Positions 4,261-60,848 of a stretch of DNA of 64,000 bases are shown piece after piece. A model generated the notes under the pieces. That model had not been told where the DNA came from, searched no databases, and worked only from the letters and a program-made list of their open reading frames with translations. Every line of letters begins with the position of its first letter. The stretch's first letter is position 1. The DNA is from Treponemataceae bacterium (lineage in GTDB: Bacteria; Spirochaetota; Spirochaetia; Treponematales; Breznakiellaceae), in assembly GCA_031549725.1 (NCBI GenBank), contig JAVBPH010000017.1:236-64235 (forward strand), in the 5' to 3' direction. The translations under genes and the position numbers were made by a program.

Positions 4261-4631
4261 GTGAACCCTTCAAGTCTTCAGGGACCGGAGTTATCCCGGT
4301 GGTTGAGGTTCTCGAAACCATCGGCGAAAGAAAACTTGTTCGTCACGGGGCCCTTCGAGAGCCTCAGGGACCGGAGTTTTCCGGTGGTTGAGGTTCCCGA
4401 AACCCACCAGCGAATGAAAGCTTGTTCGTCACGGGGCCCTTCGAGAGCCTCAGGGACCGGGGTTGTCCCGGTGGTTGAGGTTCTCGAAACCACCAGCGAA
4501 AGAAAGCTTGTTCGTCACGGGGCCCTTCGAGAGCCTCAGGGGCCGGAGTTTTCCGGTGGTTGAGGTTCCCGAAACCACCAGTGAATGAAAGCTTGTTCGT
4601 CACGGGGCCCTTCGAGAGCCTCAGGGACCGG
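4261..4631 (+). repeat. family A tandem array: about 4.4 copies of an 85-86 bp structured unit
   Basis: The anchor cccttcgagagcctcaggg recurs at 4266 (degenerate), 4351, 4437, 4523 and 4608. Each unit carries ccgg-N6-ccgg, ggtggtt...aaccacc and ttcgagagcctc...gaggttc(t/c)cgaa inverted repeats. Track ORFs on both strands here are repeat artefacts. Confidence 0.9.
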
Positions 4632-4701
4632 CATTTGGGATTTGTTCTGATGCCTCCGCGGAATGCGGGGACATCCTCGAAATAAGAAAGGAGTAAATTG
4701 T

Positions 4702-8103: not shown

Positions 8104-9558
8104 ATGAAGATTGATCCAACCTTACAAAACCTGGGTTCCCTGTTCCCCGCGGATTTTACCGATGACCAGAAGGCCCAGGCGCAGACACTGTTTCTGAAAA
8201 ACCTTTCCCTGGAAGCCCACCGTTTTTACGGGGGCAAGATGCAGACATTGCCAAAATGCGGTATCTATGGGCTGAACTGGTTTAATGTGTGGTATACCCC
8301 GGGGGTATCCAAGATATCAACCACGATCCGTGATGACAACGATGCATCCTTTGCCCTTTCCAACCGGGGGAACCTGGTGGCGGTGGTATCCGACTCCACC
8401 CGGGTCCTGGGGGATGGGGACTGTACGCCTCCGGGGGGCTTGGGGGTGATGGAAGGGAAAGCCATGATCATGAAGTACCTGGGCGGGGTGGATGCGGTGG
8501 CCCTGTGTGTGGATTCGAGGGGCAAAGACGGGAAGAACGATCCTGAGAAAATCATTGAGTTGGTGAAGATGGTCCAGCATTCCTTTGGGGCAATCAACCT
8601 GGAGGATATCAGCCAGCCGAACTGCTTCAAGGTGCTGGATGATCTGCGGGAAGCCTGTGATATACCGGTGTGGCATGACGATGCCCAGGGGACAGCCTGT
8701 GTGACCCTGGCGGGACTTATCAACGCATTGAAGATTACCGGGAAAAAACTGGAGGATGTGAAGATTGTCCTCCTCGGTGCGGGGGCATCCAACACGACCA
8801 TTGCCCGGCTGATTCTGACCGACGGGGGAGATCCCAAAAAGATGATCATGTTTGATTCGAAGGGATCGCTCCACACCGGGCGGGAGGATATTAAGAAGGA
8901 TCCCCGGAATTACCGGAAGTGGGAACTGTGTGAACAGACGAACCCGGATAAGGTAATGGCTATGGAAGAAGCCATGCAGGGAGCGGATGTGCTCATTGCC
9001 CTTTCTACACCCGGCCCTGATACGGTAAAGCGGGAATGGGTCAGGGCCATGGCGGATAAATCGATCGTGTTTGCCTGCGCCAATCCGGTACCGGAGATCT
9101 GGCCCTATGCGGCCAAGGAAGAGGGGGCGTTCATAGTGGCCACGGGGCGGGGGGATTTTCCTAATCAGGTGAACAATTCGGTGTGCTTCCCGGGGATACT
9201 GAAGGGAGCCCTCCTGGTCCGGGCAAAAAAGATTACCGACGGTATGGCGATCCGGGCGGCGCATTCGATTGCGGACTTTTCCGAAAAACGGGGCATCACT
9301 GCGGACAATATTATTGCCACCATGGAAGAAACCGATGTCTTTGCCCAGGAGGCGGCGGATGTGGCCATGGAGGCGATCAAGGAAGGGGTTGCCCGGGTCA
9401 GCTTGACCAGGGATGAGGTGTATCAGCAGGCCAAGGCGGATATCGCGGAAGCCCGGGCATTGGTGGAGGACATGAAGAAACTGGGACATATTAAGGAGCC
9501 CCCTGCGGAAATGCTCGAAGCGGCTTTGAAAAAAGCCATTGAAGCGGTAAGAAAATAA
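8104..9558 (+). CDS. NAD(P)-dependent malic enzyme (short form)
   Basis: 484-aa ORF with YTPGV, VVSDSTRVLGDGD, GVMEGKAMIMKYLGGVDA and a LLGAGAS Rossmann motif. Starts 2 nt after the pgk stop. Confidence 0.85.
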   Translation: MKIDPTLQNLGSLFPADFTDDQKAQAQTLFLKNLSLEAHRFYGGKMQTLPKCGIYGLNWFNVWYTPGVSKISTTIRDDNDASFALSNRGNLVAVVSDSTRVLGDGDCTPPGGLGVMEGKAMIMKYLGGVDAVALCVDSRGKDGKNDPEKIIELVKMVQHSFGAINLEDISQPNCFKVLDDLREACDIPVWHDDAQGTACVTLAGLINALKITGKKLEDVKIVLLGAGASNTTIARLILTDGGDPKKMIMFDSKGSLHTGREDIKKDPRNYRKWELCEQTNPDKVMAMEEAMQGADVLIALSTPGPDTVKREWVRAMADKSIVFACANPVPEIWPYAAKEEGAFIVATGRGDFPNQVNNSVCFPGILKGALLVRAKKITDGMAIRAAHSIADFSEKRGITADNIIATMEETDVFAQEAADVAMEAIKEGVARVSLTRDEVYQQAKADIAEARALVEDMKKLGHIKEPPAEMLEAALKKAIEAVRK

Positions 9559-9570
9559 ATATTCTCTGAG

Positions 9571-9754
9571 GGAACCAAAAACCTTCTGCACGCTTTCGCG
9601 TGCGAGGCAGAGCAGCGAGGTTTTTGGTTCTGTAAGGTATGGATGTTATGTGGGTTTAATACCCATACAATGTTCATTTACGAGATTTTAAGAACGCCCC
9701 GGAGCCTCGCACCCGGGAGCGTGCAGAAGATATTAAACCCACTTGCAAATAAAA
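9571..9754 (+). repeat. family B element, copy B1 (about 185-bp imperfect palindrome)
   Basis: Nearly identical to 56458-56638 and 63892-64000, and in reverse to 12446-12770. Internal inverted repeats: gaaccaaaaacct/aggtttttggttc, gcacgc-tttc-gcgtgc, gtgggtttaatacc...ggtattaaacccac, ttctgcacgc...gcgtgcagaa. Confidence 0.85.
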
Positions 9755-9787
9755 GAAAAGGGCTGTTTAAACAACCCCTTTTCTTTT
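9755..9787. terminator. bidirectional intrinsic terminator between the malic enzyme and PEGA genes
   Basis: gaaaaggg-N13-cccttttc stem flanked by an A-run upstream and a T-run downstream, between convergent genes. Confidence 0.55.
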
Positions 9788-9799
9788 AACATTCTTTTA

Positions 9800-11158
9800 T
9801 TACTGAACAATAACCTGCAGCATCGGCTGAATAAGGTAATTCCTTCCGGCCTGTACATCGATGGTCTGGTCAATTGCAAAATTGCCCGAAAGAATACGAA
9901 TAGTGTGTGTTCCTGAACGGACCTGGAAGCTGCTCGACGACTGCTGAATTCCATCAACATAAATATCAACCCGGTCTTTGGAGGTTGAACTTCCCTGGCC
10001 TACCACAATTCCCTTGGGAAGAATAAAGGATACCGTGGCGAACCGTTCCTGCTGCAGCGCAATTTTTAATACCGTGGGACCATTTACAGCAACCCGTTCG
10101 GAATATGTTTCATACCCCGAAGCCGTAACGGTGATGGTATATATTCCGGGAGAAAGGGACGTAACATAGGGGGTTATACCAACCAAATTGCCGTCAATCT
10201 GAACCTGGGCTCCCCGGATATTTGAAACATCCACCGAAAGTGAATGCTGAAGGGCAGTAAGATTGACCGGGACGGTGATATTTCCGTTTACCTCCACCTG
10301 GGCGGAATAACTCTGATACCCATTGGCTTCAACCCGGATAGTATGGATTCCCGTATTCACCGTTGCGGCGTTTCCCAGAATTTTTGTTCCATCCACATAA
10401 ATCGATGCATTTGAAACATTGGTTGTTACTGTCAGCCGGTAACTCAGGGGCGCCATGGAAATGGGAAATGTCATATTCTGCTGAAGGTTTATGGTTACCG
10501 AATAATCCGAATACCCCTGGGCTTTGGCGGTAACCACATGCTGCCCCTGGTTCAGCCGGATGCTGGTCCCGCTTACCCGGTTTCCGTCCACGTATACCAT
10601 AGCGTTGGAAGGGGAAACCTGGAAACTTAAGGTGTACTGGTTTAGTACGGTTGATGCGGCCTTCATATCAATTGAATAGGTCATGTTCTGCAGAACATTT
10701 ACCGATGCGGAAAAATTAGTGTACCCGTTGGCCTGGGCTGTGATGGAATGGGTTCCCCGGGTAACACTTAGGCTGTTTCCTGAAACCCGGTTCCCGTCAA
10801 CATACACAATTGCGTTCGAAGGGGAGACCCGGAAACTTAATGTATACAGGGTACTCCCGCTGGAGGTGGAATTCATGTTTATCGTAATATTCATGTTCTG
10901 CTGAACATTTACCGAGGTTGAATAATCGTTGTATCCCGCAGCTTGGGCGGACACCGTATGTACGCCGGGAGTCACCCGTATGCTGTTTCCGGAGACCCGG
11001 TTCCCGTCAACATACACCACCGCATTTGACGGACTGGACTGGATATTCAGGGTGTAGGTGGTCCCGGTATTACTTCCCGGCTGGGACGTTGTTGTCTGGG
11101 CCATAATCACAGAGGAAAAAGAGAGTAATGATAAAAGAACCACAAGCCATCTTTTCAT
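9800..11158 (-). CDS. secreted protein with six tandem PEGA-like domains
   Basis: Signal peptide MKRWLVVLLSLLSFSSVIMA. A roughly 70-aa unit (Y.L...SPSNA.VYVDGNRVSG.S......G.H...A.A.GY.......V...NM) recurs six times. The first three copies are most similar. Confidence 0.75.
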   Translation of the reverse strand: MKRWLVVLLSLLSFSSVIMAQTTTSQPGSNTGTTYTLNIQSSPSNAVVYVDGNRVSGNSIRVTPGVHTVSAQAAGYNDYSTSVNVQQNMNITINMNSTSSGSTLYTLSFRVSPSNAIVYVDGNRVSGNSLSVTRGTHSITAQANGYTNFSASVNVLQNMTYSIDMKAASTVLNQYTLSFQVSPSNAMVYVDGNRVSGTSIRLNQGQHVVTAKAQGYSDYSVTINLQQNMTFPISMAPLSYRLTVTTNVSNASIYVDGTKILGNAATVNTGIHTIRVEANGYQSYSAQVEVNGNITVPVNLTALQHSLSVDVSNIRGAQVQIDGNLVGITPYVTSLSPGIYTITVTASGYETYSERVAVNGPTVLKIALQQERFATVSFILPKGIVVGQGSSTSKDRVDIYVDGIQQSSSSFQVRSGTHTIRILSGNFAIDQTIDVQAGRNYLIQPMLQVIVQ

Positions 11159-11230
11159 ATAAAAAATATCTCCTTAAAAAATACCGTACATTCATCACCC
11201 TTAGATTCAGTATCCGGATATATAGCTATA

Positions 11231-12151
11231 TCACTGCTGTTCTACTGTAACATATCCCGGAGTCCGGATGGAACGGATCTGATCAGTTTCATTTGGATTA
11301 CCGCTGATCCATCCACCGCCGCTGGAACCGACTTTCCAAAAGCCCGGAGGATCCTTTAAAAGGGTTACCACCGATAAAACCCGCTCGTTGGTCCCGAACG
11401 CCACCGGATACGTTCCAAGATTCTCTTCGCCTTTCATAACATAAACCGTTGCCCTGGCGGAACTTTTACCGCTTCCGCCGGTGATAGATTCATTGGAAGT
11501 TTTCATGTGGATATAATAGCGGAGCTCCTCGTATGTATCGTCGCTCTGCTTGATAATTTTGATCGTTTCCACCAAGGGCTTGCCGGCATAGCGCAGGTCC
11601 TCATCGTATAGGTAGATAACCTTTCCAATGGGATCGGTAGATCCAGGGCCGGCTATTTTATCCCCGTCGGTACGTATATTGTTATTAGTATAATCCCGGA
11701 CCATATAGGCATCTATATTAACAGCTTTGTTTACCCAGTTCACCATAACATAGATATCATTTTTGGTTAAAGCATCATTTGGGTCATAGGGGAATGCCAG
11801 CATGTCCGGTAACGTGGTATCATCCTGGACAATACTGATATATTGAGGAACAAAGGAAAAGCCCGGTTTGTAACCTTCAATCAGGTAATTACCGGGTTTG
11901 ATTAAATAGAACGCATATTCCCCGGAACTGTTGACCACAGCATTACTGACACTCCCGGATTTCTGGTTGGTCAGTCTGATAGAAGCGTTGATCAGTCCAT
12001 CCCAATACCTTGAGCCGGAAATAGTAACATTTATTGCTTTCCCTCCAATACTATTGATATAATCGTCCGAATAATTGGGAAAATTCCCGTCAATAATACA
12101 TGAAGAAAAAATACATCCAGATATAATAAGAAACAGTATCCACCTCTTCAC
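11231..12151 (-). CDS. lipoprotein, N-terminal carboxypeptidase-regulatory-like beta-sandwich (hypothetical)
   Basis: Lipobox IISGC / FSSC in the signal peptide. The segment GEYAFYLIKPGNYLIEGYKPGFSF resembles a CarboxypepD_reg fold. No further recognisable motif. Confidence 0.55.
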   Translation of the reverse strand: MKRWILFLIISGCIFSSCIIDGNFPNYSDDYINSIGGKAINVTISGSRYWDGLINASIRLTNQKSGSVSNAVVNSSGEYAFYLIKPGNYLIEGYKPGFSFVPQYISIVQDDTTLPDMLAFPYDPNDALTKNDIYVMVNWVNKAVNIDAYMVRDYTNNNIRTDGDKIAGPGSTDPIGKVIYLYDEDLRYAGKPLVETIKIIKQSDDTYEELRYYIHMKTSNESITGGSGKSSARATVYVMKGEENLGTYPVAFGTNERVLSVVTLLKDPPGFWKVGSSGGGWISGNPNETDQIRSIRTPGYVTVEQQ

Positions 12152-12445
12152 AACGAACTCCTTACCCCTTATTTATCTAAGGAACAAACAATGATTGGCA
12201 TCCCTACGTTACAGGATGTCGTAGAATTTTTATCTATACTATTATTAAAATAATTTCGATAAAATCCGTATAATGTTATTAAACCCCGCAGGGACCGAAA
12301 AAAGCTCCTGGTTTCGAATAATTTATACTGCATTATTCTTTAATATATCCCGGAAAATCGTTTTATCCATTTTTTCAAATTACTTTAAAACAACCACCTT
12401 TCCGGCTGACATGCCTTTTTCAAGACAAGTAACCATATGGGATGT

Positions 12446-12770
12446 TTTATTCGCAAGTGGGTTTAATACCTTCTGCACGCTCCCGGGTGGGAGGTTCCGG
12501 GGCGTTCTAAGGAAACACTGATTAATGCCCATAGTGCATTAATCAGTGTATTCTTTAATGCAGGCAATTCTTTGTGCAACAAAGAATTGCGGAGGGAACC
12601 GCTGATTGTCCGCATATTGCGGCCGGTTTAATCAGCGGTTTCCTAAAAATCTTGTAAATGAACATTGTATGGGTATTAAACCCACATAACATCCATACCT
12701 TACAGAACCAACAAACCTCGCCGCCCCGCGCGCTCTGCCTCGCACGCGAAAGCGTGCAGAAGGTTTTTGA
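12446..12770 (-). repeat. family B element, copy B2 (reverse orientation), interrupted by C1
   Basis: Reverse complement of the B consensus. The two halves (12446-12509 and 12644-12770) are contiguous in copy B3. Carries a 9-nt in-frame-length indel relative to B3. Confidence 0.85.
12510..12643 (+). mobile_element. family C MITE-like element, copy C1, nested in B2 with TA target-site duplication
   Basis: 134 bp. Terminal inverted repeats GGAAACACTGATTAA / TTAATCAGCGGTTTCC and three long hairpins. Filled site ttcTA[C1]TAaaaatc versus empty site ttcTAaaaatc in B3 (reverse complement of 56566-56576). Confidence 0.8.
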
Positions 12771-12899
12771 TTAACCGCATAATTTTAATATATTAGAAAT
12801 AGGATTCTGCGGATTATCCGGCGGGCTTTCCGGTTCTATTATTTTTATATGATCCGGTATATACTTTTTAAAATCCCTGGAACAGCATAGGTAGCACCC

Positions 12900-14197: not shown

Positions 14198-14872
14198 ATG
14201 ACCCGGGGAATTTTAATTGCAGGAAACGAATCTGCCCTTTCTGCGGCAGTCACCGCAGAAGCCGCCAAGCGGGTAACCACCGTATCCACTGCCCTTATCC
14301 AAAACCGGTTCAGCGAAGCCCGGCAGGCGGCAGCTCCGGTTCCTGAGGGCACCACCATCATCCCCATAACCTGGAATCCGGGAAGTCCTATTTCCGCCCG
14401 GTCACTGCTCCTGGCAGCGGAAAACCATCTGGAACATGTGGATGATGCCCTATTAATCTGCGATCCCCCGGCAATCAGGAAAAAACCGGAAGAATTAACC
14501 CCCTCGGAAATTGATTATGTAGTAAACGACCATATTAAGGGCTGGTTCTTCCTGGTCAGGGAACTGATTCTGACCTTCCGGGCCCGGGGAAAAGGGACCC
14601 TTTGCCTGATCACCACCGACATCAGTTCCGGCGGAAAGGATGATATCCCGGATATGGTTGGGCCTTCGGTATCTGCTTCATTTAGGGCCTTTGCCCAGGG
14701 GGTGCTTGCTTCGGCAGCAAACGAACCCTTCCGGGCTCTGGGGTTTTCATCATCAGAACCGGGCAGCGAAGGCGAGTTTGCGGCTTTCATTTATAAAATA
14801 ATTGATGAAGAAAACAAACGCGATTCAGGGAAGTGGTACAAATTCGGGAAGCTTAATTTCTTTGGGAGATAA
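14198..14872 (+). CDS. SDR-like Rossmann-fold protein with degenerate cofactor and catalytic motifs (hypothetical)
   Basis: 224-aa ORF starting 5 nt after larA. Its overall pattern resembles short-chain dehydrogenases by eye. TGxxxGIG is replaced by IAGNESALS, and YxxxK by SASFRAF. Confidence 0.5.
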   Translation: MTRGILIAGNESALSAAVTAEAAKRVTTVSTALIQNRFSEARQAAAPVPEGTTIIPITWNPGSPISARSLLLAAENHLEHVDDALLICDPPAIRKKPEELTPSEIDYVVNDHIKGWFFLVRELILTFRARGKGTLCLITTDISSGGKDDIPDMVGPSVSASFRAFAQGVLASAANEPFRALGFSSSEPGSEGEFAAFIYKIIDEENKRDSGKWYKFGKLNFFGR

Positions 14873-14982
14873 CGAAAACCAGATGAAACAGAAAAGCTGA
14901 GTTTAATTATTAAAATACGGTATTAAACATGGTATCATCAGGTTAAGAGCAGAAGGATTAAAAAAGAACCTTCCCGGGTGAG

Positions 14983-15014
14983 CCCCGGGGTATTAAAACA
15001 GACGTCCGAATAAA
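14983..15014 (+). repeat. family F module, copy F1
   Basis: ccccggggtattaaaacagacgtccgaataaa. Related to 55425-55456, 60754-60776 and the right end of family B (ggtattaaacccacttgcgaataaa). Confidence 0.5.
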
Positions 15015-15040
15015 ATATTCCAACATAGAAGCAGGAATAT

Positions 15041-19430: not shown

Positions 19431-19691
19431 ATAAAATTCCTTGCTTCCTTAATACCAAAAATCGACTATCTCTGTATTGTATTATTATAACATGTAAATT
19501 ATTTCACCGCTATAATTATGTAGATTATCAATAATATCCCAGTGCAGGATACACAATGCGATACTGCACTGGCCGTAAAAAACATCCCTGACAATAATCC
19601 ATTTCAATATAGGAAAATTTGAACATTTAAAATTATTAATTTAAAAAACATGATACGTAATACATTTTTCCACTAAGATATTTATAAGAAT

Positions 19692-19854
19692 GAAGAACCC
19701 CGTGGCAGAGCCTCGGGGTTCTTCATTGTAGAGGAAATTATTATACAGGCTGAGGGTTCATACCACATACAAACGTTTCAACCTTCTTCCAGGGCGTTAA
19801 AAAATCAACCGATGCAAGCATCCCGGCATGAACTCCAACAGCCTTCCAATCAAA
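19692..19854 (+). repeat. family D element, copy D1 (about 165 bp)
   Basis: Near-identical to 39875-40039 and 53542-53705. Starts with the hairpin gaagaaccccg-N11-cggggttcttc. The core attgtagaggaaattattatacaggctgagggttcataccacatacaaacgtttcaacctt is conserved. Confidence 0.8.
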
Positions 19855-19916
19855 GTGGTAATATATGAGATGTATTTTCGCTTCCGGTTTTTCAACCATG
19901 TCCATGTGCGACCATT

Positions 19917-23976: not shown

Positions 23977-23992
23977 TATAGAATATTCTTCT

Positions 23993-24065
23993 GGTCCAGT
24001 AGCTCAGGGGATAGAGCAACTGCCTCCTAAGCAGTAGGTCGGCCGTTCGATTCGGCCCTGGATCA
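23993..24065 (+). tRNA. tRNA-Arg (anticodon CCT)
   Basis: Folded by hand into a 73-nt cloverleaf: 7-bp acceptor stem (one G-U), D arm gctc/gagc, anticodon stem actgc/gcagt with loop ctCCTaa, T arm ggccg-ttcgatt-cggcc. CCA is not encoded. Confidence 0.9.
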
Positions 24066-24170
24066 ATAGTTAATTCCGGATTTTGTGTTTGTCCTTAAAA
24101 AATAAATTTCCAAATAATTCCTGGGATTGGTTCCGGCTTTTCATATAAGCTTCAAGGTCAAGGAAAATAT

Positions 24171-24629: not shown

Positions 24630-24727
24630 ATTACATTTTATTTCTGAATTTCTCCGGCGGATACTATATCCGCCTTCTGAAACTTGCCCCGGGATTCCCA
24701 GCAAATCCCGGGGCAAGCCCTATCTAA

Positions 24728-24858
24728 GGAAACACTGATTAATGCCCACAGAGCATTAATCAGTGTTTCCTTAATATAGGCAATTCTTTGTGCAACAAAG
24801 AATTGCGGAGGGAACCGCTGATTGGTCGCATATTGCGGCCGGTTTAATCAGTGGTTCC
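24728..24858 (+). mobile_element. family C MITE-like element, copy C2
   Basis: 131 bp, with the same three hairpins as C1 and C3. The first is a perfect 16-bp stem (aaacactgattaatgc / gcattaatcagtgttt). Lies between convergent genes. Confidence 0.85.
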
Positions 24859-24869
24859 GAAAAAATCCG

Positions 24870-27767
24870 TTAATTTTTCGGCGCCCTGCTTTCAGGGTAT
24901 AGGATCATCTTCAAAGGACCGCCGGTTTGAAGTACACCGGTTAATCTCTGCAGATCTCCGGGCTGCACATTGCCGTAGAGTTCCGGCCTGGCATACAGCC
25001 TGGACAGGGGCAGCTGAAAAATCTGGTTGTAGTTGGCAAAACTTCTTGCCATGTAACCGTTGCTCTGCATGGACTGCTCAAAGGTTTTTTTCAGGGCTTC
25101 CCTGGCTTTTACCAGGGTATCATTGCTGATGTTTCCTCTGCCGATCAAACCCAGTTCAGTGCTCACCGCTGCGGCCAGTTCCTCCGCCCGGCCGGGATCA
25201 CAGTAGAACGTAACTATCAAATACAGCTCTCCGCTGGGCATGGGGGTTAAACTGATGCTGGGAGATATGGAATAAACCCCGCCCAGCTTTTCCCGGATTT
25301 CTTCGGTGAGCCGGATATCCAGGTATTCATTCAGCACCAAGGCGCTGCTGAAATCCTTTTCGGAATAGGCCATGGGAATAAACCATCCCATAAAAACGAT
25401 GCCCTTATCTTCTTTTCCTTTGTACAGGATTTTCTCCTGTTTTCCCGGAAGGGGAATATGCATATCGGTCCAGTTATTGAACCGGGTATTTCCTTCCCCA
25501 TAGGCAGGGACCGAAGCCAGGTATTTTTCGGTAAGTTTTTTCAGCACCGCTTCGTCCGCATTTCCTGTAAACACAAACACATAGTCCGCCGGGTTCAGGG
25601 ATTTCTTAAGAAAAAGCTCCGCGGGTTTTACGGAGATTTTATCCAGATCCGCCAGAACCATAGGCCTGGTTTTGGGATAATTGCCGTACATGATCCGCTG
25701 CACCTCATCAAAAAACCATGATTCGGGGTTTTCCTGCCTTTGTGTCAGGGTTGTCCGGTACTGGTCCATGAGGACCGCCGCGGCATCCGCATCAATTCTG
25801 GGCTGGGTGAAGCCCAGGTAAAGCAGTTCAAAAAGTGTTTCCAGATCACCCGTGGCGGCGGTTCCCTGGAACCCCCGGAGATAAGAGGAAAGCCAAAAAC
25901 TCAGGGAGACCTGTTTGTCCGCCAGTTTTTTCAGGAGTTCGGTCCGGGTAAAATCCCCGGCTCCGGAATTGTTGAACATATCCGCCGCGGAGTACACCGA
26001 ATAATAATCCTCATCATCTGCGCTGGAGGTTCCCCCCTTTGCCAGCGCATAAAAAGAAACTTCGTTATTTTTATTTGCGGTGGTTTTGAATAAAACCGTT
26101 GCACCGTTGCCCAGGGTCCACTCAATAACCCCAGTGGCCTGGTCGGTTTTTTCATCGAGAATTGTTCCCGGCAGGGGATCGTTCTGAATCAAGTCGCCGC
26201 TGTAGGTTTCTTCTTTTGGTTTTTCAATTTTTGCTATTGCTGCCGCAGCAACCATAGCTTTTATGGCAGCCTGGTCCGGAAGGGAAGATGCATCGGTACT
26301 GGGGGCGGTGACAAAAACCGTCAGGTCATCATCCTTAAAAAAATCCTTAACCGCCGCGGCAAGTTCTTTCTGGCCGATCCCCGGAAGCAGCTTCTTTACC
26401 GCATTGAGTTCCCAGCTGATATCCGGCAGGCTGCTTCCGTCCAGGTAGTGCCGGGTAAGCTGCTGTATATAAGATGATGATTCCTGCCGGTCCTGTTCGG
26501 CGGTCATCTGTTCCATATCGGAAATCAACGATCGTTTGGCCATATCGATTTCTCCCTGGGTAAACCCGTAGCGTTCCATGGATTCCTTTTCCAGCAGAAC
26601 CGCATTCATTGTTTCCTTAGCCAAACCGGGCTTGGCAATTCCGGACACCACATAAAAACGGGAAGAATAGGCATAACGGGTTGTCCAGGCACCGGCGGCC
26701 ACATAGGGGGTTTCCGGTTTAGCCGCGGCTTCATCAAACCGGAGGTACATCATCCTGGAGATCAGGTTTTCAATCACGTCCTGCCGGTAGGATGATAAAT
26801 CCGCGGCGAGTACGCTGGGCTGCCGTTTGAAATAAAAATCCGCCCTGGTGTAGGTTAATTCGGGATCGGTAATAATCTCCGCCCGGAACTTTCCTTTTAC
26901 CGGCGCAGGCAAATCGTAATGGGGTTTATCCAGGGGTGTTGATAGAGGATCAGCCTGGAAATATTTTACCAATTCCGCTTCCAGGGCAGCGCCGTCAAAA
27001 TCACCCACAAAAATAACTGCCATGTTGTCCGGACGGTACCATCTTTTATAAAAACCCACCAGCCTCTCCGCAGGGGCATGTTCAATAATCTCGGGCAGCC
27101 CGATGGGAAGCCGGACCGCATAGGGGGATCCCTCAAAGAGGATGGGCAGCATTTTCCGCTGCACCCGTTCCCCTGCTCCCAGCCGGGACCGGTATTCTTC
27201 CATAATTACCCGGCGTTCCGCATCCACATCCTCAGGGATAAAACTGATGCGGCTGGTCCAATCGCTGATTACCTCCAGGGCTTTGTCGGGAATCATTTTT
27301 TTACCCGAATCCAGGGTTTCCACCGGGACTTCGATGCCGTAAACGGTTTCATCAAAATTGGTGTAGGCATTTACCTCCGGACCAAACCGCATGCCCAGGG
27401 ACCGGAGATAATTCACCAGTTCGGACTTGGGAAAATGTTCCGTGCCGTTGAAAGCCATGTGCTCCACAAAATGGGCAAGCCCCTGTTCATCATCCTTTTC
27501 CAGAACCGATCCGGCAGCCACCGCCATGGTTAAATATGCCCGGTTTTCGGGTTTTTTATTTTCCAGAATAAAATAGGTCAGTCCATTGGGGAGTTTCCCC
27601 GTCCGGGCGGATTCCATAAAGGGCACCGGGTCCATGGGTTTTCCCAGACCGGCATAGGATTCAACTTTTTCCGAAGGATTGCTTGAACATGCAGCGGTGT
27701 ACAGGATAAAAAAAACCACCGCAGCAGCCCGGATGCATTTTTTAATAGAGAAAAAATTCGTAGTCAT
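24870..27767 (-). CDS. M16 family zinc metallopeptidase (pitrilysin-like), lipoprotein
   Basis: 965-aa ORF with the inverted zinc motif HFVEHMAFNGT, duplicated M16 halves, and a signal peptide with lipobox TAAC. Confidence 0.9.
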   Translation of the reverse strand: MTTNFFSIKKCIRAAAVVFFILYTAACSSNPSEKVESYAGLGKPMDPVPFMESARTGKLPNGLTYFILENKKPENRAYLTMAVAAGSVLEKDDEQGLAHFVEHMAFNGTEHFPKSELVNYLRSLGMRFGPEVNAYTNFDETVYGIEVPVETLDSGKKMIPDKALEVISDWTSRISFIPEDVDAERRVIMEEYRSRLGAGERVQRKMLPILFEGSPYAVRLPIGLPEIIEHAPAERLVGFYKRWYRPDNMAVIFVGDFDGAALEAELVKYFQADPLSTPLDKPHYDLPAPVKGKFRAEIITDPELTYTRADFYFKRQPSVLAADLSSYRQDVIENLISRMMYLRFDEAAAKPETPYVAAGAWTTRYAYSSRFYVVSGIAKPGLAKETMNAVLLEKESMERYGFTQGEIDMAKRSLISDMEQMTAEQDRQESSSYIQQLTRHYLDGSSLPDISWELNAVKKLLPGIGQKELAAAVKDFFKDDDLTVFVTAPSTDASSLPDQAAIKAMVAAAAIAKIEKPKEETYSGDLIQNDPLPGTILDEKTDQATGVIEWTLGNGATVLFKTTANKNNEVSFYALAKGGTSSADDEDYYSVYSAADMFNNSGAGDFTRTELLKKLADKQVSLSFWLSSYLRGFQGTAATGDLETLFELLYLGFTQPRIDADAAAVLMDQYRTTLTQRQENPESWFFDEVQRIMYGNYPKTRPMVLADLDKISVKPAELFLKKSLNPADYVFVFTGNADEAVLKKLTEKYLASVPAYGEGNTRFNNWTDMHIPLPGKQEKILYKGKEDKGIVFMGWFIPMAYSEKDFSSALVLNEYLDIRLTEEIREKLGGVYSISPSISLTPMPSGELYLIVTFYCDPGRAEELAAAVSTELGLIGRGNISNDTLVKAREALKKTFEQSMQSNGYMARSFANYNQIFQLPLSRLYARPELYGNVQPGDLQRLTGVLQTGGPLKMILYPESRAPKN

Positions 27768-36715: not shown

Positions 36716-36730
36716 AATGAAATCCTCCTA

Positions 36731-36863
36731 GGCAAACACTGATTAATGCCCACAGAGCATTAATCAGTATATTCTTTAATGCAGGCAATTCTTTGTGCAA
36801 CAAAGAATTGCGAAGGGAACCGCTGATTGGCTGCATATTGCGGCCGGTTTAATCAGCGGTTCC
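36731..36863 (+). mobile_element. family C MITE-like element, copy C3
   Basis: 133 bp, same three-hairpin architecture as C1 and C2. Its right end overlaps the last codons and the stop of the VOC ORF. Confidence 0.85.
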
Positions 36864-37209
36864 CCAGATAACCGGATGCTCGGCTCCTCCGGTTTGGTTT
36901 ATCCTGGTATATTTCCAGCCAGTGTCCGTCGGGATCTTCCAGGGTAAGCAGGCTGCCGTATTCTTCTTCCCGGATTCCCCCGATGCAAACAATTCCCAAT
37001 GCAAGTGCCCGGGTGTAAAATGCCTGAATATTCTCCGTCTCAAACATGATCCGGGTTTTTACCGGAACCACCTTCCTCTTTTCTTCCGGCCTTGTCAAGA
37101 GTGCAAACGAAGTTGTTCCCAGATCAAATTCAACCCATCCGTCATTCCGGAATTTCAGTTTCAATCCGATTTTGTTTTGATAAAAATCAACATGCCCCGC
37201 CGCAAGCAA
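36853..37209 (-). CDS. VOC (glyoxalase/bleomycin-resistance) family protein, probably truncated at both ends
   Basis: 118-aa ORF with a VOC-like core (DFYQNKIGL...LEDPDGHWLEIYQ). The TTG start lies inside repeat E1. The final codons and the TGA stop lie inside repeat C3. The N-terminal strand usual for VOC proteins is missing. Confidence 0.55.
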   Translation of the reverse strand: MLAAGHVDFYQNKIGLKLKFRNDGWVEFDLGTTSFALLTRPEEKRKVVPVKTRIMFETENIQAFYTRALALGIVCIGGIREEEYGSLLTLEDPDGHWLEIYQDKPNRRSRASGYLGNR

Positions 37210-37338
37210 CGGGGCATGTTGGTTCTGTAAGGTATGGATTATATGCGGGTTTCATACCCCGCAAAACAATTTCTTTGTTGCTTCAAAGAATCGACCTAAA
37301 AAGCGGGGTATGAAACCCACCTGCGAATCAATTGACCG
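37195..37338 (+). repeat. family E element, copy E1
   Basis: Matches 40043-40173: ccccgccgca..cggggcatgttggttctgtaaggtatggatt.tatgcgggttt.ataccccgca.aacaatttctttgtt.cttcaaagaatcg.cctaaa.agcggggt.t.aaaccc.cctgcgaat. Confidence 0.75.
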
Positions 37339-37461: not shown

Positions 37462-37610
37462 TCCTTCGACAAACCCAGGGCCTTACACCCCCCGGTGATT
37501 GAGGTTCTCGAAATCACCTGTGAAAGAAAAGCTTACTTTCTCACGGGCCCTTCGAGAGCCTCAGGGACCGGGATCCCCCGGTGATTGAGGCTCTCGAAAT
37601 CACCTGCGGA
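37462..37610 (+). repeat. family A, dispersed copy A2 (about 1.5 units, variant stem)
   Basis: Contains cccttcgagagcctcagggaccgg flanked by two ggtgattgagg(t/c)tctcgaaatcacc hairpins. The stem is ggtgatt/aatcacc instead of ggtggtt/aaccacc. Confidence 0.75.
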
Positions 37611-39874: not shown

Positions 39875-40039
39875 GAAGATACCCCGGGGCAGAGTCTCGG
39901 GTTATCTTCATTGTAGAGGAAATTATTATACAGGCTGAGGGTTCATACCACATACAAACGTTTCAACCTTCATCCAGGGCGTTAAAAAATCAACCGATGC
40001 AAGCCTCGGGGTATGAACCCCAACAGCCTTCCACTCAAC
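39875..40039 (+). repeat. family D element, copy D2
   Basis: Second copy of the 165-bp element. Carries the internal inverted repeat gggttcatacc...ggtatgaaccc intact. Confidence 0.8.
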
Positions 40040-40042
40040 AAC

Positions 40043-40173
40043 CCCGCCGCATCGGGGCATGTTGGTTCTGTAGGGTCAGGATTTTATGCGGGTTTAATAC
40101 CCCGCACAACAATTTCTTTGTTACTTCAAAGAATCGCCCTAAAGAGCGGGGTCTTAAACCCGCCTGCGAATAA
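40043..40173 (+). repeat. family E element, copy E2 (abuts D2)
   Basis: See E1. Starts 3 nt after D2. Confidence 0.75.
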
Positions 40174-40303
40174 CAGCATCCGTCGCACCGGACGGGAACC
40201 GGCGGGTTTATATAAAATCCCTTGACAACCCTTACCTATTCAGAAACTATGCATTATACTATGGATATGATTTTCAGATCACATTTATCAATTTTCAGAG
40301 CCC

Positions 40304-40344: not shown

Positions 40345-40418
40345 GGGGGTGTAGCTCAGTTGGCTAGAGCGTTTGAATGGCATTCAAAAGGCCAGGGGTT
40401 CAATTCCCCTCACCTCCA
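40345..40418 (+). tRNA. tRNA-Ala (anticodon GGC)
   Basis: Folded by hand into a 74-nt cloverleaf. The acceptor stem gggggtg/cacctcc has the G3:U70 alanine identity pair. Anticodon stem tttga/tcaaa with loop atGGCat. T arm agggg-ttcaatt-cccct. Confidence 0.9.
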
Positions 40419-40454
40419 GAATTTTCCATCTTTTTTCCAATATTTTATTTTGCC

Positions 40455-42104
40455 ATGAGTGAAAACGATATGTTCCAGGGCGACATGGATCCTGAAATTG
40501 CTGAACTCCTGGGTGCTTCCACCGGATCAAATCAAACCTCACAGAAAGACATTCCTCCGGATTACTCAAGCCTTTTTAATGATGATGAAAGAGAAGAGGT
40601 GGATGCGCCGGAAATAGATCTTACCGAAACTTCCTTTCCCCAGATTACAAAACGTTTTTCAGATACGCCCATTACCATTTTTAACGATCCCAATTATTAT
40701 AAATCCGTCCTTTCCAGTGAGGGTGATATATCCCAGCGGGTGCATAATATCCTGCAAAAATATATCAATGCCAAAGACCCAAAGGACAGGAGCGTCTTCC
40801 GCCAGCAGTTTATCACCGCATACTGGGATTTCCTTATTAATATTGCCAGAAAAACCCCGGGGAGAATTCCCGAAGCAAAAAGAAACCTGCTCCGGTTCGG
40901 CATTCTCCACCCCAATTTTATTGAAGCCGGTGACCGGGAATTTTTTTCCAAAGTCATTGTAGAAAACGACATGAACCAGCCCATTTATTATCTTGATGAA
41001 TGGATTAAGGCTGTGGGAACCGGCGCCATAAGAAATTCCAGTACCGATGAGGTCCGGATTGCCAAGTCCAATTCCCAGATGAAACTGATGCAGCTCCTGG
41101 AAAAAGCTGCGGGAAAAAGGGATGGAGCCAAGAATCTTTTAAAGGCAAAAAGCGAAGAGCGGATACACTTTGAAAACACCCTTAAGCATAAGATGGATTT
41201 TATAATGGAACATTATCCCATAGAGGGTATGTCCGATATTTACTCGAATTATACGGAAACCCAGAAAAAGGAATTTTCGGAAATTCAGGAAATCCTGAAA
41301 ACCATGCTCCGGTCCGACCGGGAGCTGGAACTATTTATCCGGGATTTCCGTCAGGCCGAAGCGGATGTAAGAACCATAGAGCAGAAAATTGAAGAGGAAG
41401 GGGTGGTTGTTGAAGTTGACATGAGGGCAATAGATACGGAATTTGAAACTGTCCGGCAGATGACTAAAATGACCATTGGCCGGCAGGGAAACCATTTCCC
41501 TATCCTCACCAAGGAATACTTCCGCTGCAGCCCCAACGATATAGCATACCGGGAAAATGTAATTCTCATCCTTACCTGGCTGGAAAGTATTGATCCGGAA
41601 GTGTTCTGCCGGTCCTACAAAAACCGCCTGAACCGGATTGTTCCTTACATTGTATTACTGCCTTCTTATGGGGATATGGGGATCTGCTGGGAACCCTTTG
41701 ACCGGTTCAACCGGGCCACCAGCCGGGGCCGGATTGCATTGCCCATGTACCCAAAAAACCTGAACCTGGCAATCCTTTCCGCCGCGGCGGACCTGCGCTG
41801 GCAGGTTGCAAAGGAAAAGGCTTCCTATTACTGGATGGAGGAAGGCATCACGGGTAATTATTACCAGTGGTTTACCTCCAGGAAACTGAAGGGCGACGTG
41901 AAGGAATACTTTATACAGGATTACATCATCTGGATTACCAAGGAAAGCGAAGGCATCCAGAAACTTGATAAGGAAATCCGGGGGTTTTTCTGGCGTTACC
42001 TGCCCTTCTCCCAGGCGGTTAAGGATAAACTGAAAGGCCGGAGCTATGTGTACCAGGAACTGTACCAGCGGGATATAAACCGGTCCATGTCCGACGGGTA
42101 TTGA
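40455..42104 (+). CDS. conserved hypothetical protein
   Basis: 549 aa from ATG 40455 (MSENDMFQGD). The track start 40377 lies inside the tRNA-Ala gene and is rejected. No recognisable motif. Confidence 0.6.
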   Translation: MSENDMFQGDMDPEIAELLGASTGSNQTSQKDIPPDYSSLFNDDEREEVDAPEIDLTETSFPQITKRFSDTPITIFNDPNYYKSVLSSEGDISQRVHNILQKYINAKDPKDRSVFRQQFITAYWDFLINIARKTPGRIPEAKRNLLRFGILHPNFIEAGDREFFSKVIVENDMNQPIYYLDEWIKAVGTGAIRNSSTDEVRIAKSNSQMKLMQLLEKAAGKRDGAKNLLKAKSEERIHFENTLKHKMDFIMEHYPIEGMSDIYSNYTETQKKEFSEIQEILKTMLRSDRELELFIRDFRQAEADVRTIEQKIEEEGVVVEVDMRAIDTEFETVRQMTKMTIGRQGNHFPILTKEYFRCSPNDIAYRENVILILTWLESIDPEVFCRSYKNRLNRIVPYIVLLPSYGDMGICWEPFDRFNRATSRGRIALPMYPKNLNLAILSAAADLRWQVAKEKASYYWMEEGITGNYYQWFTSRKLKGDVKEYFIQDYIIWITKESEGIQKLDKEIRGFFWRYLPFSQAVKDKLKGRSYVYQELYQRDINRSMSDGY

Positions 42105-52085: not shown

Positions 52086-52345
52086 TTTCCTAGGAATGAA
52101 TAATTCTTTTTTACCATCAATTTAATAAACCATAGAGGCTTTTTCAAAATGTCAAATTTTGAAAAAGCAACCTTAGATGTAAGTGCAGAAAGAATACTAT
52201 TTTATGTATGGGTATGGAAATAGCATTCTTTCTGCAAAAGCCTTTTTCAAAACTAACCGAGTTTTGAAAAAGGCTCCATATACAAATAATTTTCATACTA
52301 TTTTTCCGGGAATCCCGGAAAACCCCATTTTTAATCCGAATCCCC

Positions 52346-53505: not shown

Positions 53506-53541
53506 TCTGAACATCATAAAAACGGAAACCCTGTCATTAAT

Positions 53542-53705
53542 GAAGAACCCCGACGCAGAGCCTCGGTGCATCTTCGTTGTAGAGGAAATTATTATACAGG
53601 CTGAAGGGTTCATACCACATACAAACGTTTCAACCTTCATCCAGGGCGATAAAAAATCAACCGAGGCAAGCATCGTGTATGAACCCCAACAGCCTTCCAA
53701 TCAAA
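53542..53705 (+). repeat. family D element, copy D3
   Basis: Third copy of the 165-bp element. The first hairpin is degenerate here. Confidence 0.8.
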
Positions 53706-53923
53706 TTTGAATATCATTCACTTTTTTATATACTTAAAGTTATTATAGAATAAAATTATGTATAAATAACTATCAAGAATTCATCCCTGCCTCATCCTAA
53801 ATTGCCGCTTTGAATTTGTTTTGATCACATGCATAACCTTATTATTTTATAAAATGAGGCTTTTTTAAAAATAATCAAGTTTTGAAAAATGCTCAAACAT
53901 CAATTTAAAATTGGAGAAACGCT

Positions 53924-55420
53924 ATGAAACAAAAATGGAAATTTCTTTCAGCAACGGCACTTATTACTGCATTACTGGTATTTTTGACTGTAAGCTGCAG
54001 CAGTGTCGGTTCATCTTCGGACAGTACCGGAACAACTAAAACCGCAGGTTACCAGTTTACCAACGGCTATCCGGACGCAGCATCAATCCAGGGTTTATAC
54101 AATGATGCGGATTTGAACAGGGCGGTCACCGCATACCGGTTTTTCTACCCCACTGTTTCAGGAGAAGCTATTCTGAGGGGCAACACAGCAATCGGCGTGG
54201 TTCCGAATAAGGTATTCGGAACCCTCGACACAAAACCAATCCATTTGGGTTTTACACTGAATTCGGATACTCCCTATGCGCCTGTCCTGCTGGACCTGAG
54301 TTCCGGGCCTTTTGTGGTGGAACTGCCTCCGGGTTCATTAATTGTGGTAGCCCTTGATGTAAACCAGCGGTGGGTAGCCGACATGGGAATCCCCGGGCCG
54401 GATGCGGGTAAAGGGGGTAAACACCTGATTCTTCCTCCGGAGTACAAGGGTACTATCCCCACGGGTTACCATGTATGGAATTCAACATCAAATAATCTAC
54501 TAGTGGGCGTCCGGGCTTTACCCATGGACGGCGATGTTAAGAAAGCCATGGATTTAATTACCACCATCAAGGTGCACCCCCTCAATCCGGGAAGCGACTG
54601 GAAAGATCCCACCTGGGTGGATCTTACAGCCAAACCCCAGGATACCACCCCGCTGAAATGGGAAAATAACTTCCAGTTCTGGCAGATGCTATATGAAGTA
54701 ATTAACCGGGAACCGGCCTATCCGGGATATTTTACTCATTATGGTGAATTAGCTGCCCTGGGAATTGAAAAGGGCAAGCCCTTTAATCCCGATGCCAGGA
54801 TGAAGGGTATTCTGGAACAGGCGGCTATAATCGGGAACCAGCAGATGAGGGTCCAGTCCTTTGCGGACCGCAGGCCCGACAGGGTGGTCTGGCAGGACCG
54901 CCAATGGGAATGGGTAGGACTCCGGCCTGAAAATGGTGACTTTGCGACTCCTAATTATTCCGACCTTACTGCGAGGGAAGTGTGGTTTTATCAGGCCATA
55001 GGTGCTTCTCCTGCCATGTTCCGCAGACAGGCCGGATCAGGATCGGTGTACTGGCTGGGACTCCGGGATAAAAACGGTGTGTATGTGGACGGCGCCAAAA
55101 CCTACAAACTTACCATCCCCCAGCCGGTTCCGGCGCAGCTTTTCTGGTCGGTAACCGTATACGATTCGGATACCCGGAGCCAGATTAATTCAGGCCAGGG
55201 TTATGCCGCACTGCGTTCCATGTTTGAACTGAAGGACCTTGCAGGGGGCAATGCTCCGATCGAATTGTATTTTGGTCCAAAAGCACCCGCGGGCAAGGAA
55301 AAACAATGGATACAAACTATTCCCGGCAAGGGATGGTTTGTGTATTTCCGGGTATACGGACCCCAGGCACCTGCATTTGACGGAACCTGGAAACCCGGCG
55401 ATTTTGAGGACGTAAAATGA
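53924..55420 (+). CDS. DUF1254/DUF1214-type secreted lipoprotein (hypothetical)
   Basis: 498-aa ORF with lipobox LTVSC. The N-terminal DLNRAVTAYRFFYPTVS and the overall length resemble the DUF1254+DUF1214 family, from memory only. Confidence 0.55.
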   Translation: MKQKWKFLSATALITALLVFLTVSCSSVGSSSDSTGTTKTAGYQFTNGYPDAASIQGLYNDADLNRAVTAYRFFYPTVSGEAILRGNTAIGVVPNKVFGTLDTKPIHLGFTLNSDTPYAPVLLDLSSGPFVVELPPGSLIVVALDVNQRWVADMGIPGPDAGKGGKHLILPPEYKGTIPTGYHVWNSTSNNLLVGVRALPMDGDVKKAMDLITTIKVHPLNPGSDWKDPTWVDLTAKPQDTTPLKWENNFQFWQMLYEVINREPAYPGYFTHYGELAALGIEKGKPFNPDARMKGILEQAAIIGNQQMRVQSFADRRPDRVVWQDRQWEWVGLRPENGDFATPNYSDLTAREVWFYQAIGASPAMFRRQAGSGSVYWLGLRDKNGVYVDGAKTYKLTIPQPVPAQLFWSVTVYDSDTRSQINSGQGYAALRSMFELKDLAGGNAPIELYFGPKAPAGKEKQWIQTIPGKGWFVYFRVYGPQAPAFDGTWKPGDFEDVK

Positions 55421-55424
55421 ACCT

Positions 55425-55456
55425 CCGCGGGGTATTAAACCAGACTTCCGAATAAA
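55425..55456 (+). repeat. family F module, copy F2
   Basis: ccgcggggtattaaaccagacttccgaataaa, located between the stop codon and the terminator. Confidence 0.5.
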
Positions 55457-55510: not shown

Positions 55511-55596
55511 TGAAAATAGGGGTTTTATCAAAACTCAGGTAGTTTTGATAAAACCCAATATATAATCCTTCAACCAGAATATTTTTCTTTCCAGGA

Positions 55597-56337: not shown

Positions 56338-56371
56338 AGGTCATTTCATAAAACCTTATTTCCTGCAGATC

Positions 56372-56456
56372 CCCTTCATGATTCGAGAGCCTCAGCACAA
56401 GTAACCCCAGGGCCCGGAGACTCCCGGTGGTTGAGGCTCCCGAAACCACCTGTGCA
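56372..56456 (+). repeat. family A, dispersed unit A4
   Basis: attcgagagcctcag...cccggtggttgaggctcccgaaaccacctgtgc, immediately left of B3. Confidence 0.7.
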
Positions 56457-56457
56457 A

Positions 56458-56638
56458 TCAAAAACCTTCTGCACGCTTTCGCGTGCGAGGCAGAGCAGCG
56501 AGGTTTGTTGGTTCTGTAAGGTATGGATTTTATGTGGGTTTAATACCCATACAATTTTCATTTACAAGATTTTTAGAACGCCCCAGAGCCTCGCACGCGG
56601 GAGCGTGCAGAAGGTATTAAACCCACTTGCGAATAAAA
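56458..56638 (+). repeat. family B element, copy B3 (uninterrupted)
   Basis: Full-length B copy. Provides the empty-site sequence for the C1 insertion. Confidence 0.85.
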
Positions 56639-56644
56639 ACTTTT

Positions 56645-56722
56645 TTATCACAAGGCCCTTCGAGAGCCTCAGGGCCCGGATGGAATCTCCCGGTAGTTGG
56701 AACTCTCGAAACCACCAGCGAA
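56645..56722 (+). repeat. family A, dispersed unit A5
   Basis: cacaaggcccttcgagagcctcagggcccgga...cccggtagttggaactctcgaaaccaccagcgaag, immediately right of B3. Confidence 0.7.
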
Positions 56723-60632: not shown

Positions 60633-60718
60633 TCCGTAAAAAATGACATCTTATTTTCTTTAGCCGTCCATTATAAAAAGGGCTGCCCGGAATCGTTGAT
60701 TCCAGAGGCTGCCCCTTT

Positions 60719-60776
60719 TTATTCGGAAGTCTGGTTTGCTACTCCGCGGCAAGCCCCGGGGTATTAATCCAGACGG
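60719..60776. repeat. family F modules in inverted (palindromic) arrangement, F3
   Basis: tttattcggaagtctggttt is the reverse complement of the F module. About 16 nt later comes ccccggggtattaatccagacgg in forward orientation. Confidence 0.5.
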
Positions 60777-60795
60777 TATTATGCGGACTTCATCC

Positions 60796-60848
60796 GTGTT
60801 CTGTAAGGAAAAGATAATATGCGGGGTATTCACCCCGCATGCGAATAC
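60796..60848 (+). repeat. degenerate family E-like fragment
   Basis: gtgttctgtaagg...atatgcggggtattcaccccgcatgcgaat retains the gttctgtaagg head, a gcgggg/ccccgc hairpin and the tgcgaat tail. Confidence 0.35.

Follow-up and report, generated by a model that had tools for sequence, protein, structure and literature searches.

Intergenic repeats with a common end module in a termite-gut treponeme: a candidate superfamily of non-autonomous mobile elements

What are the strongly folded repeats that separate the genes in a 64,000-nt stretch of Treponemataceae DNA (contig JAVBPH010000017.1, positions 236 to 64,235; hereafter the window), and how did they come to lie there? The window makes up almost the whole contig of an uncultured termite-gut treponeme; the malic enzyme encoded at 8104-9558 shares 89% identity with that of Breznakiella homolactica, 85% with that of Treponema primitia ZAS-2 and 84% with that of Leadbettera azotonutricia. 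An initial annotation, made from the letters alone, had sorted the repeats into families A, B, E and F that end in variants of one terminal module, and had suggested that this module could be a recognition site for a protein or an RNase. What we find speaks for insertion elements that have a precise junction, and for more than such sites. That they are non-autonomous mobile repeats of a family absent from Rfam, from plasmid and phage collections and from the searchable literature is well supported. On balance we favour a lineage-specific superfamily of small non-coding elements, probably moved in trans as single-stranded DNA by an enzyme of the HUH/Y1 type.

Modular families built on one plan

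Self-comparison, direct reading and family hidden Markov models (HMMs), complemented by Tandem Repeats Finder and a covariance model (R1), located in the window all the copies of families A, B, E and F that had been described; the segment at 12276-12325, put forward as a possible F copy, bears only a faint resemblance to that family. Some 23 units occupy 14 loci with unrelated flanks: nine A units at three loci, four B, three E (one of them degenerate), four F and three members of a 134-nt family (D6) of the same architecture, which the earlier grouping, sound in treating the modules as related, had left out. Every unit is placed between long open reading frames (ORFs) or overlaps gene ends by a few bases (E copy 1 overlaps the putative TTG start of the ORF at 36853-37209), and the initial estimate of at least about 20 intergenic elements or fragments in 64 kb holds. 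The common 3' module was equally borne out: the tail pattern AAACC-N3-8-SCGAA matched 16 times, as opposed to 2.95 ± 1.79 times in shuffled sequence (none of 100 shuffles reached 16), the longer tail of B and E occurred six times with none expected, and units of different families are joined into mosaics (A, B and A at 56351-56722; 134-nt family and E at 39877-40175).

Alignment of the B and E copies of the window with homologues from other organisms indicates that the two form a single family of 145-185 nt with a fixed plan. The left junction, ...AAT^CAAC (carets mark junctions), is followed by a hairpin, P1 (ATCAACAACCYCGCC-loop-GGCGRGGTATGTTGGT), whose stem has AAC and GTT triplets at its base and which carries a bulged base; by a conserved unpaired linker, TTCTGTAAGGTATGGATTTTAT; and by a long-range stem of 15 bp, P2 (GYGGGTTTAATACCC paired with GGGTATTAAACCCRC), which encloses a variable segment and a further hairpin, P3, before the tail YTGCGAAT^AAA closes the element. 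The gggttt.atacc motif that had been read as a hairpin following a head common to B and E is present, but it is mainly the 5' arm of this long-range stem. The terminal module consists of the 3' arm of the same conserved stem together with the right-end junction, and it doubles as the place where further units preferentially land. Hairpins P1 and P3 are homologues of the common form CGCC-loop-GGCGGGGTAT, and within most elements the two carry the same type of loop (GCAGAGC or CCTGAAG).

The B/E fold is far more stable than that of shuffled sequence on either strand (z = -7.4 on one, -8.05 on the other), and compensatory changes were found in 11 of 35 pairs, a number reached by two of 500 shuffles, with 1-6 in slid controls. 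Examples are TTTCATACC/GGTATGAAA in E copy 1 and GTGTGTTTGATACC/GGTATCAAACACAC in contig L023 of a related genome. Conservation of the linker across species is partly a matter of ascertainment, the homologues having been found through that 20-mer; variants found otherwise are GTTCTGTAAGGAAA... (at 60781 and in contig L015) and TTGTAGAGGAAATT (in the 134-nt family). A mini-ORF or a Shine-Dalgarno sequence in the linker was considered and discarded, neither being conserved between E1, E2 and B.

Family B is represented by copy 1 (9574-9758, plus strand, 109 bits), copy 2 (12441-12771, minus strand, 91 bits, split at 12507-12643 by an unrelated element of 137 nt), copy 3 (56457-56638, plus strand, 124 bits) and copy 4 (63892-64000, plus strand), which is cut by the window end and, along 110 nt, matches copy 2 at 99% identity. 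Compared with its E-type relatives, B carries an extra 23-nt palindromic module (TCTGCACGC TTTC GCGTGCGAG) in P1, complementary to a long variant of P3 that also occurs in contigs L012 and L035 and in a solo tail in L042. B is an E-type element with an added palindromic module, and it is the pairing of this module with the long P3 that gives B its apparent 31-nt inverted repeat and its look of a 185-bp palindrome. The E copies, all on the plus strand, lie at 37186-37332 (copy 1, 122.6 bits) and 40034-40175 (copy 2, 115 bits), and a degenerate minimal one at 60781-60850 (42 bits, E = 1e-6 with the covariance model) retains a small P1, a GTTCTGTAAGG linker, a single hairpin and the tail ATGCGAAT. 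On the minus strand of 37186-37223, P1 of E copy 1 followed by ATTTTTAT reads as a 15-bp intrinsic terminator downstream of a PNPOx gene; the A-rich left flank lends the reverse strand of some copies a terminator-like look.

The remaining families are variations on these parts. The 134-nt family follows the P1-linker-P2-tail plan of B/E with a different sequence, is found only weakly by model R1 and is probably a paralogue of B/E. All three copies are on the plus strand: copy 1 at 19690-19859 (E = 0.026), with the boundaries AAT^GAAGAACCCCG...GGTATGAACCCCAACAGCCTTCCAAT^CAA, copy 2 at 39877-40038, fused head to tail with E copy 2 through the common junction A(A/C)TCAA, and copy 3 at 53540-53710 (E = 0.0024). 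F is the 3' module on its own, a hairpin plus tail: at 14969-15015 (plus strand, E = 3e-11) a GC hairpin is followed by GGTATTAAAACAGACGTCCGAATAAA, at 55419-55456 (plus strand, E = 9e-10) the module begins at the stop codon of a DUF1214 gene, and at 60717-60785 two inverted modules, one on the minus strand (60717-60759) and a degenerate, weak one on the plus strand (60752-60785), form a palindrome. Family A is an 86-nt tandem hairpin unit ending GGTGGTT-loop-AAACCACCAGCGAAT, a tail akin to that of B/E. Its units, on the plus strand throughout, form an array of three full and two partial copies at 4266-4636 (4.1 copies with 91% matches in Tandem Repeats Finder), a pair at 37463-37610 recovered from the repeat listing and the family HMM, and single units at 56351-56455 and 56636-56722 on either side of B copy 3. 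The pair at 37463-37610 has GGTGATT/AATCACC where other A units have GGTGGTT/AACCACC, a compensatory change that makes the A tail, too, the 3' arm of a stem.

Junctions, empty sites and distribution

The true termini, CAAC... and ...GCGAAT, are not inverted repeats of each other. AT or AAT recurs on both sides of the elements instead of varying from copy to copy, as would suit either a fixed end plus a fixed target or a 2-3 bp duplication of a preferred site; about 11 of 15 copies are preceded by the triplet AAT, the remainder by GAT, AAC or ACT. The joints between units are equally exact. B copy 3 sits precisely between two A units, the ...GTGCAAT tail of the first adjoining its head (...GTGCAAT^CAAAAACC) and the second following its own GCGAAT (...GCGAAT^AAAAACTTTTTTATCAC); E copy 2 begins at the A(A/C)TCAA that it has in common with the tail of the 134-nt family; the element of contig L012 comes directly after a solo tail (GCGAAT^CAAC); and successive A units are joined by the same rule of tail, then unit. 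Insertion takes place at a fixed point just after (A)AT, and preferentially right after the GCGAAT of a resident unit, building head-to-tail mosaics and tandem arrays. Counting each array once, 15 of 17 independent insertions are on the plus strand (binomial p ~0.002), five of these in regions with minus-strand genes.

Comparison of filled with empty sites showed insertion at three loci. Contigs L045-47, from relatives whose malic enzyme is 87% identical to that of the window, keep the gene order GFO_IDH, KduI, TPP enzyme, AP endonuclease, GAPDH, PGK, malic enzyme and LarA, and have a spacer of about 20 nt at the site of the A array and of about 26 nt at the site of a 3.3-kb insert (9559-12899). 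This insert, without counterpart in the relatives, consists of B copy 1 on the plus strand, two minus-strand surface-protein genes (PEGA and CarboxypepD_reg) and B copy 2 on the minus strand, so that inverted B copies with their heads outward form its left and right borders; its G+C content is 0.47, compared with 0.53 for its neighbours. The same gene pair occurs, at 67% identity, in Brucepastera parasyntrophica, near a phage-type integrase and without B elements, and we therefore regard the idea that B, the PEGA genes and B travel as one composite as unsupported.

The third locus gave the sharpest boundaries. In contigs L023 and L052 an E-type element (L023 4563-4750) lies between an AP-endonuclease-like gene and a GFO_IDH gene of an operon, at a site where relatives (L053-55, 83% identical protein) have a spacer of 5-6 nt, only ...GGCTGAAAACGGATG.... 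Deletion in silico of CAAC...GCGAAT from L023 restores ...CCAAGAT^GAAAAAAC, in which a TGA stop overlaps an ATG start (ATGA), and this ATG aligns with the start codon of the relatives; such overlaps of stop and start are typical of coupled genes. With the element in place, the upstream protein is six codons longer and terminates within the loop of P1, the downstream ATG is rebuilt from the terminal AT of the element, and the Shine-Dalgarno sequence seen in the relatives is displaced. The A array, the B-bordered pair of genes and the L023/L052 element are thus insertions.

Homologues occur in Breznakiella homolactica, in a Treponema metagenome-assembled genome and in at least eight further metagenome contigs, some of them from termite-gut samples, which agrees with the earlier view of a dispersed family, not a few local duplications. 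A scan of 185,579 species genomes with the 20-mer of the head returned eight matches, about the chance expectation by estimate; BLAST bore out those in Breznakiella and the Treponema assembly, one per genome, two in Marinifilum were coincidences within coding sequence, and T. primitia and L. azotonutricia, if among the 185,579 species representatives, had none. A match resembling the terminal module in contig L037 (position 10027) was rejected, as it lies within an ORF and lacks a hairpin.

That the modules could not be matched to a described family still stands after searches of databases and text. At the gathering threshold, Rfam 15 found in the window only two tRNAs and a spurious match to a histone element; at an E-value threshold, the best match to the repeats was MIR856 (20.5 bits, against a threshold of 297). 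Blastn against plasmid and phage collections and two scans of viral contigs gave no match, and a full-text literature search for motif strings and for repeats of termite treponemes returned no described family. Small non-autonomous repeats shape bacterial genomes: assemblies break at them, operons are split and rearrangements seeded by them, and some can be co-opted as regulatory RNA structures. For the termite-gut treponemes, a clade for which metagenomes are the main source of knowledge, our searches of literature and databases brought up no description of such a family. The B/E family yields a well-defined covariance model for annotating their genomes, and it explains contig breaks in their assemblies. 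Short-read assemblies of SRR23967709, apparently from the same organism, stop within family B copies, as expected of a high-copy repeat: Logan contigs L001 (2568-2602) and L050 (1-28 and 2713-2773) end inside family B, the breaks flanking the PEGA gene pair and following the malic enzyme gene.

How the elements may move

Several properties of the elements, namely the lack of terminal inverted repeats, two similar hairpins on the same strand, a short fixed sequence at the point of insertion and a right end whose last letters equal the target, together with the head-to-tail arrays and the strand bias, make them resemble the 'peel and paste' IS200/IS605 and the RAYT/REP systems more than MITEs (miniature transposable elements with inverted repeats) moved by DDE transposases. 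By this analogy we infer an IS200/IS605- or RAYT-like mechanism. An HUH/Y1 enzyme of IS200/IS605 or RAYT type, with its gene elsewhere in the genome, would act on the elements in trans and would most likely move them as single-stranded DNA. The two similar hairpins, P1 and P3, would be its binding sites, GCGAAT would be both the right-end cleavage site and the preferred target, and whatever influence the elements have on the stability or termination of transcripts would be a by-product. The elements are taken to be non-autonomous because a Pfam and NCBIfam scan found no transposase or integrase family in any of about 55 window ORFs, nor in 20 ORFs beside homologous elements.

The closest parallel in mechanics would be that with PATEs (palindrome-associated transposable elements) and other non-autonomous IS200/IS605-derived elements, which likewise lack terminal inverted repeats and variable target duplications, are small, and show a strand bias. 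A further common trait is a pair of subterminal hairpins, alike and on the same strand, one towards either end (here P1 and P3, with their common arms and co-varying loop types). PATEs insert beside a short fixed sequence, with which the reconstructed empty site of L023 is consistent, although a 2-bp duplication fits it too. They differ in that no parent insertion sequence or tnpA is known here, in that P1 starts directly at the left junction, and in the presence here of a 15-bp long-range stem with a conserved linker and of several families that share the right-end module only.

Several observations weigh against this mechanism. The gene for a RAYT or other transposase that the initial annotation proposed to look for did not come to light: the window and some 0.45 Mb of related loci yielded no HUH/Y1, RAYT or other candidate enzyme, tblastn with IS608-, IS200- and RAYT-like queries gave no match in the searched loci, and no autonomous element that encodes tnpA (Y1) and/or tnpB and has the same ends turned up in the window or those loci. 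The strand bias is one of strand on a single contig and may or may not follow the direction of replication, and an unrelated 137-nt MITE with terminal inverted repeats is also on the plus strand in three of three copies. AT or AAT on both sides also fits a target duplication of 2-3 bp at a preferred site, and the only inverted pair within one contig (L015) has mixed orientation. The empty sites come from relatives at 83-87% protein identity, with boundaries placed to about 2 nt at one locus only, and the A tail resembles that of B/E over a short stretch, at about 12 of 16 nt.

The flanking AT or AAT, seen at nearly every copy, is also the starting point for a classical explanation, in which the repeats would be MITEs of a DDE transposase that duplicates a preferred target of 2-3 bp (AT/AAT), like those derived from IS630 or IS5. 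Their size and intergenic placement are typical of such elements, the same genome harbours a genuine MITE in the 137-nt element, and B carries a 31-nt inverted repeat of 84-90%. However, that inverted repeat is subterminal and stems from the added module missing in the relatives of B; in E, the 134-nt family, F and A alike, the sequences at the very ends, CAACAACC... and ...TTGCGAAT, do not form inverted repeats; and both the strong strand bias and the head-to-tail fusion at one fixed point speak against this origin, which we consider unlikely. The superfamily is also unlike the MITEs of Correia, ERIC and RUP type, which resemble it in length (100-200 nt), structure, intergenic position and frequent co-transcription with neighbours, and which have true terminal inverted repeats with TA (or similar) duplications; it is the 137-nt element of the window that fits this class.

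The conserved and very stable fold with its covariation could instead reflect a function, the repeats being primarily RNA or DNA signals (small RNA genes, 3'-untranslated-region stabilisers or terminators, sites for RNases or nucleoid proteins) that were multiplied for that function. A co-oriented gene stands just upstream of about nine of 12 copies, the opposite strand of some copies has P1 and then a T-run, which reads as an intrinsic terminator, and the unpaired linker is invariant across species, though in copies found through that 20-mer. As opposed to this expectation, G-U and A-C combinations are about equally frequent in the stems (18 versus 22 cells) and give no support for strand-specific RNA folding, there is no Rfam match and no recurrent promoter was seen. 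The distribution is also patchy, the 20-mer exceeding chance in only two of the 185,579 species genomes, once in each; insertions are polymorphic between relatives, and the L023 copy has come between two translationally coupled genes, taking away the Shine-Dalgarno sequence of the pair. A primary signalling role thus seems rather improbable.

Pairs of elements that flank genes raise two further ideas. In contig L026 (2223-4455) an alpha/beta-hydrolase gene and a SocA/Panacea antitoxin gene are enclosed by two E-type copies in direct orientation; a HicB antitoxin gene lies near this pair, and the accessory region around it is rich in toxin-antitoxin genes. With the B copies around the PEGA genes (9574-12771), this arrangement allows the speculation, which we hold to be doubtful, that the shared terminal module is the cleavage site and landing pad of an undescribed recombinase or HUH system that joins different structured modules into head-to-tail mosaics, could move host genes flanked by two copies, and builds cassettes in a way distinct from integrons, BIMEs and known insertion sequence families.

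The alternative that the repeats are site-specific recombination sites or cassette boundaries, attC-like or of another tyrosine or serine recombinase, with AATMAA as a shared crossover core and with the capacity to flank and move genes, appears to us quite unlikely. The likeness to integron attC sites, such as the Vibrio cholerae repeats, lies in the imperfect palindromes, in the AAC...GTT at the base of the stem, in a bulged base, and in a single AATCAA core common to adjacent units; P1 (AATCAAC/GTTGGTT) is one position off the consensus of each attC box, R'' (RYYYAAC) and R' (GTTRRRY), and has a bulged A and a variable loop. The lower G+C content of the two-gene insert between inverted B copies, the direct copies around the hydrolase and SocA genes, and the position of E copy 1 within a run of small GNAT, glyoxalase and PNPOx genes would also suit such a role. 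P1 is, however, only about 38 nt long without an unpaired central spacer, and never occurs apart from the other 110 nt, which make up a large extra domain that is constant; the boundary is AAT^CAAC and not G^TT. The window has no intI and no cassette array, no integrase was found among its scanned ORFs, the elements are scattered among housekeeping genes, and the Brucepastera gene pair has no such flanks. Termite-gut treponemes have been reported to be without integrons, lacking intI and attC (PMC3607928).

Local segmental duplication or an assembly artefact, conceivable for a contig from a metagenome-type assembly, is refuted by homologues in other genomes and contigs, including independent assemblies of other samples, by the unrelated flanks of copies that are 70-99% identical, and by the element edges reproduced in short-read assemblies of the same organism.

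The analogies with BOX and BIME elements that the initial annotation had drawn hold for the logic of the system, mosaics of hairpin modules, and this logic resembles that of BIME/REPIN and BOX; the direct, not alternating, units and the lack of an A-Bn-C order set the repeats apart. As in REP/BIME and REPIN-RAYT systems, for which an HUH-type mobilisation is presumed as it is here, hairpin modules are intergenic and occur singly (F), as inverted pairs and in mosaics. In contrast to them, the units are mostly direct and the arrays head to tail (the F/F palindrome at 60717-60785 being the only inverted pair in the window), the elements are much longer, and no RAYT was found in the searched loci. 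Nor do the hairpins have the conserved GTAG that marks the 5' foot of the 20-40 nt imperfect palindromes of REP/BIME; they follow AACC or CAAC, and the linker, 15-20 nt ahead of P2, is the only part with GTAA or GTAG. Pneumococcal BOX, compared by description, shares the small number of sequence blocks, the strong folding, the intergenic position and a mobilising function that is unknown; the order here is P1-linker-P2[variable+P3]-tail and not boxA-boxB(n)-boxC, the sequences appear unrelated, the phylum is different, and a precise insertion junction and empty sites were seen here. Family A alone recalls the mycobacterial interspersed repetitive units (MIRU), whose tandem units of 46-101 nt (86 nt in A) lie in the intergenic spacer of an operon; A units differ in carrying a hairpin and the shared tail module and in interleaving with other families. 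The repeats lack defining features of classical MITEs (terminal inverted repeats), of REP/BIME (GTAG foot, alternating orientation), of BOX (block order) and of integron attC arrays (clustered cassettes next to intI).

Should the enzyme prove to be a single-strand HUH transposase or a new one, the precise AAT^CAAC...GCGAAT^ junction makes its chemistry directly testable, and several families with one common end module serving as insertion target offer a tractable case. A new enzyme acting on the shared end module, or mobility of the pairs that flank genes, would add to the interest.

Neighbouring repeats and genes

Two further kinds of repeat occur in the window. The 137-nt element is a classical MITE, unrelated to the superfamily, with three copies in the same orientation (12507-12643, 24723-24859 and 36728-36864), terminal inverted repeats AGGAAAC(A/C)(C/G)CTGATTAA, internal hairpins and TA-like flanks; the first copy is the one nested inside B copy 2. 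AT-rich palindromes of about 38 nt (...TTTTCAAAACT-loop-AGTTTTGAAAA...) at 52239-52276, 53857-53894 and 55520-55557 form long terminator-like hairpins downstream of genes, and a motif akin to them is found in contig L042 at 14470-14590 (TTGCAAAACT...AGTTTTGCAA).

Between 15000 and 19500 lies an island of low G+C content (0.29-0.40, compared with about 0.5 elsewhere in the window) that encodes an SH3_3 protein, an Rce1-like protease and proteins without a family match, and is bordered by the F module at 14969 and the 134-nt family copy at 19690. The Rfam match to 'Histone 3' UTR stem-loop' at 26057-26102 falls inside an M16 peptidase gene and, with 34.7 bits against a threshold of 34, is almost certainly spurious. 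The two tRNA genes are tRNA-Arg(CCT) at 23992-24066 and tRNA-Ala(GGC) at 40345-40418, the latter 170 nt downstream of the mosaic of the 134-nt family and E copy 2. A mechanically called ORF at 40377-42104 overlaps tRNA-Ala, so that its real start must be further downstream.

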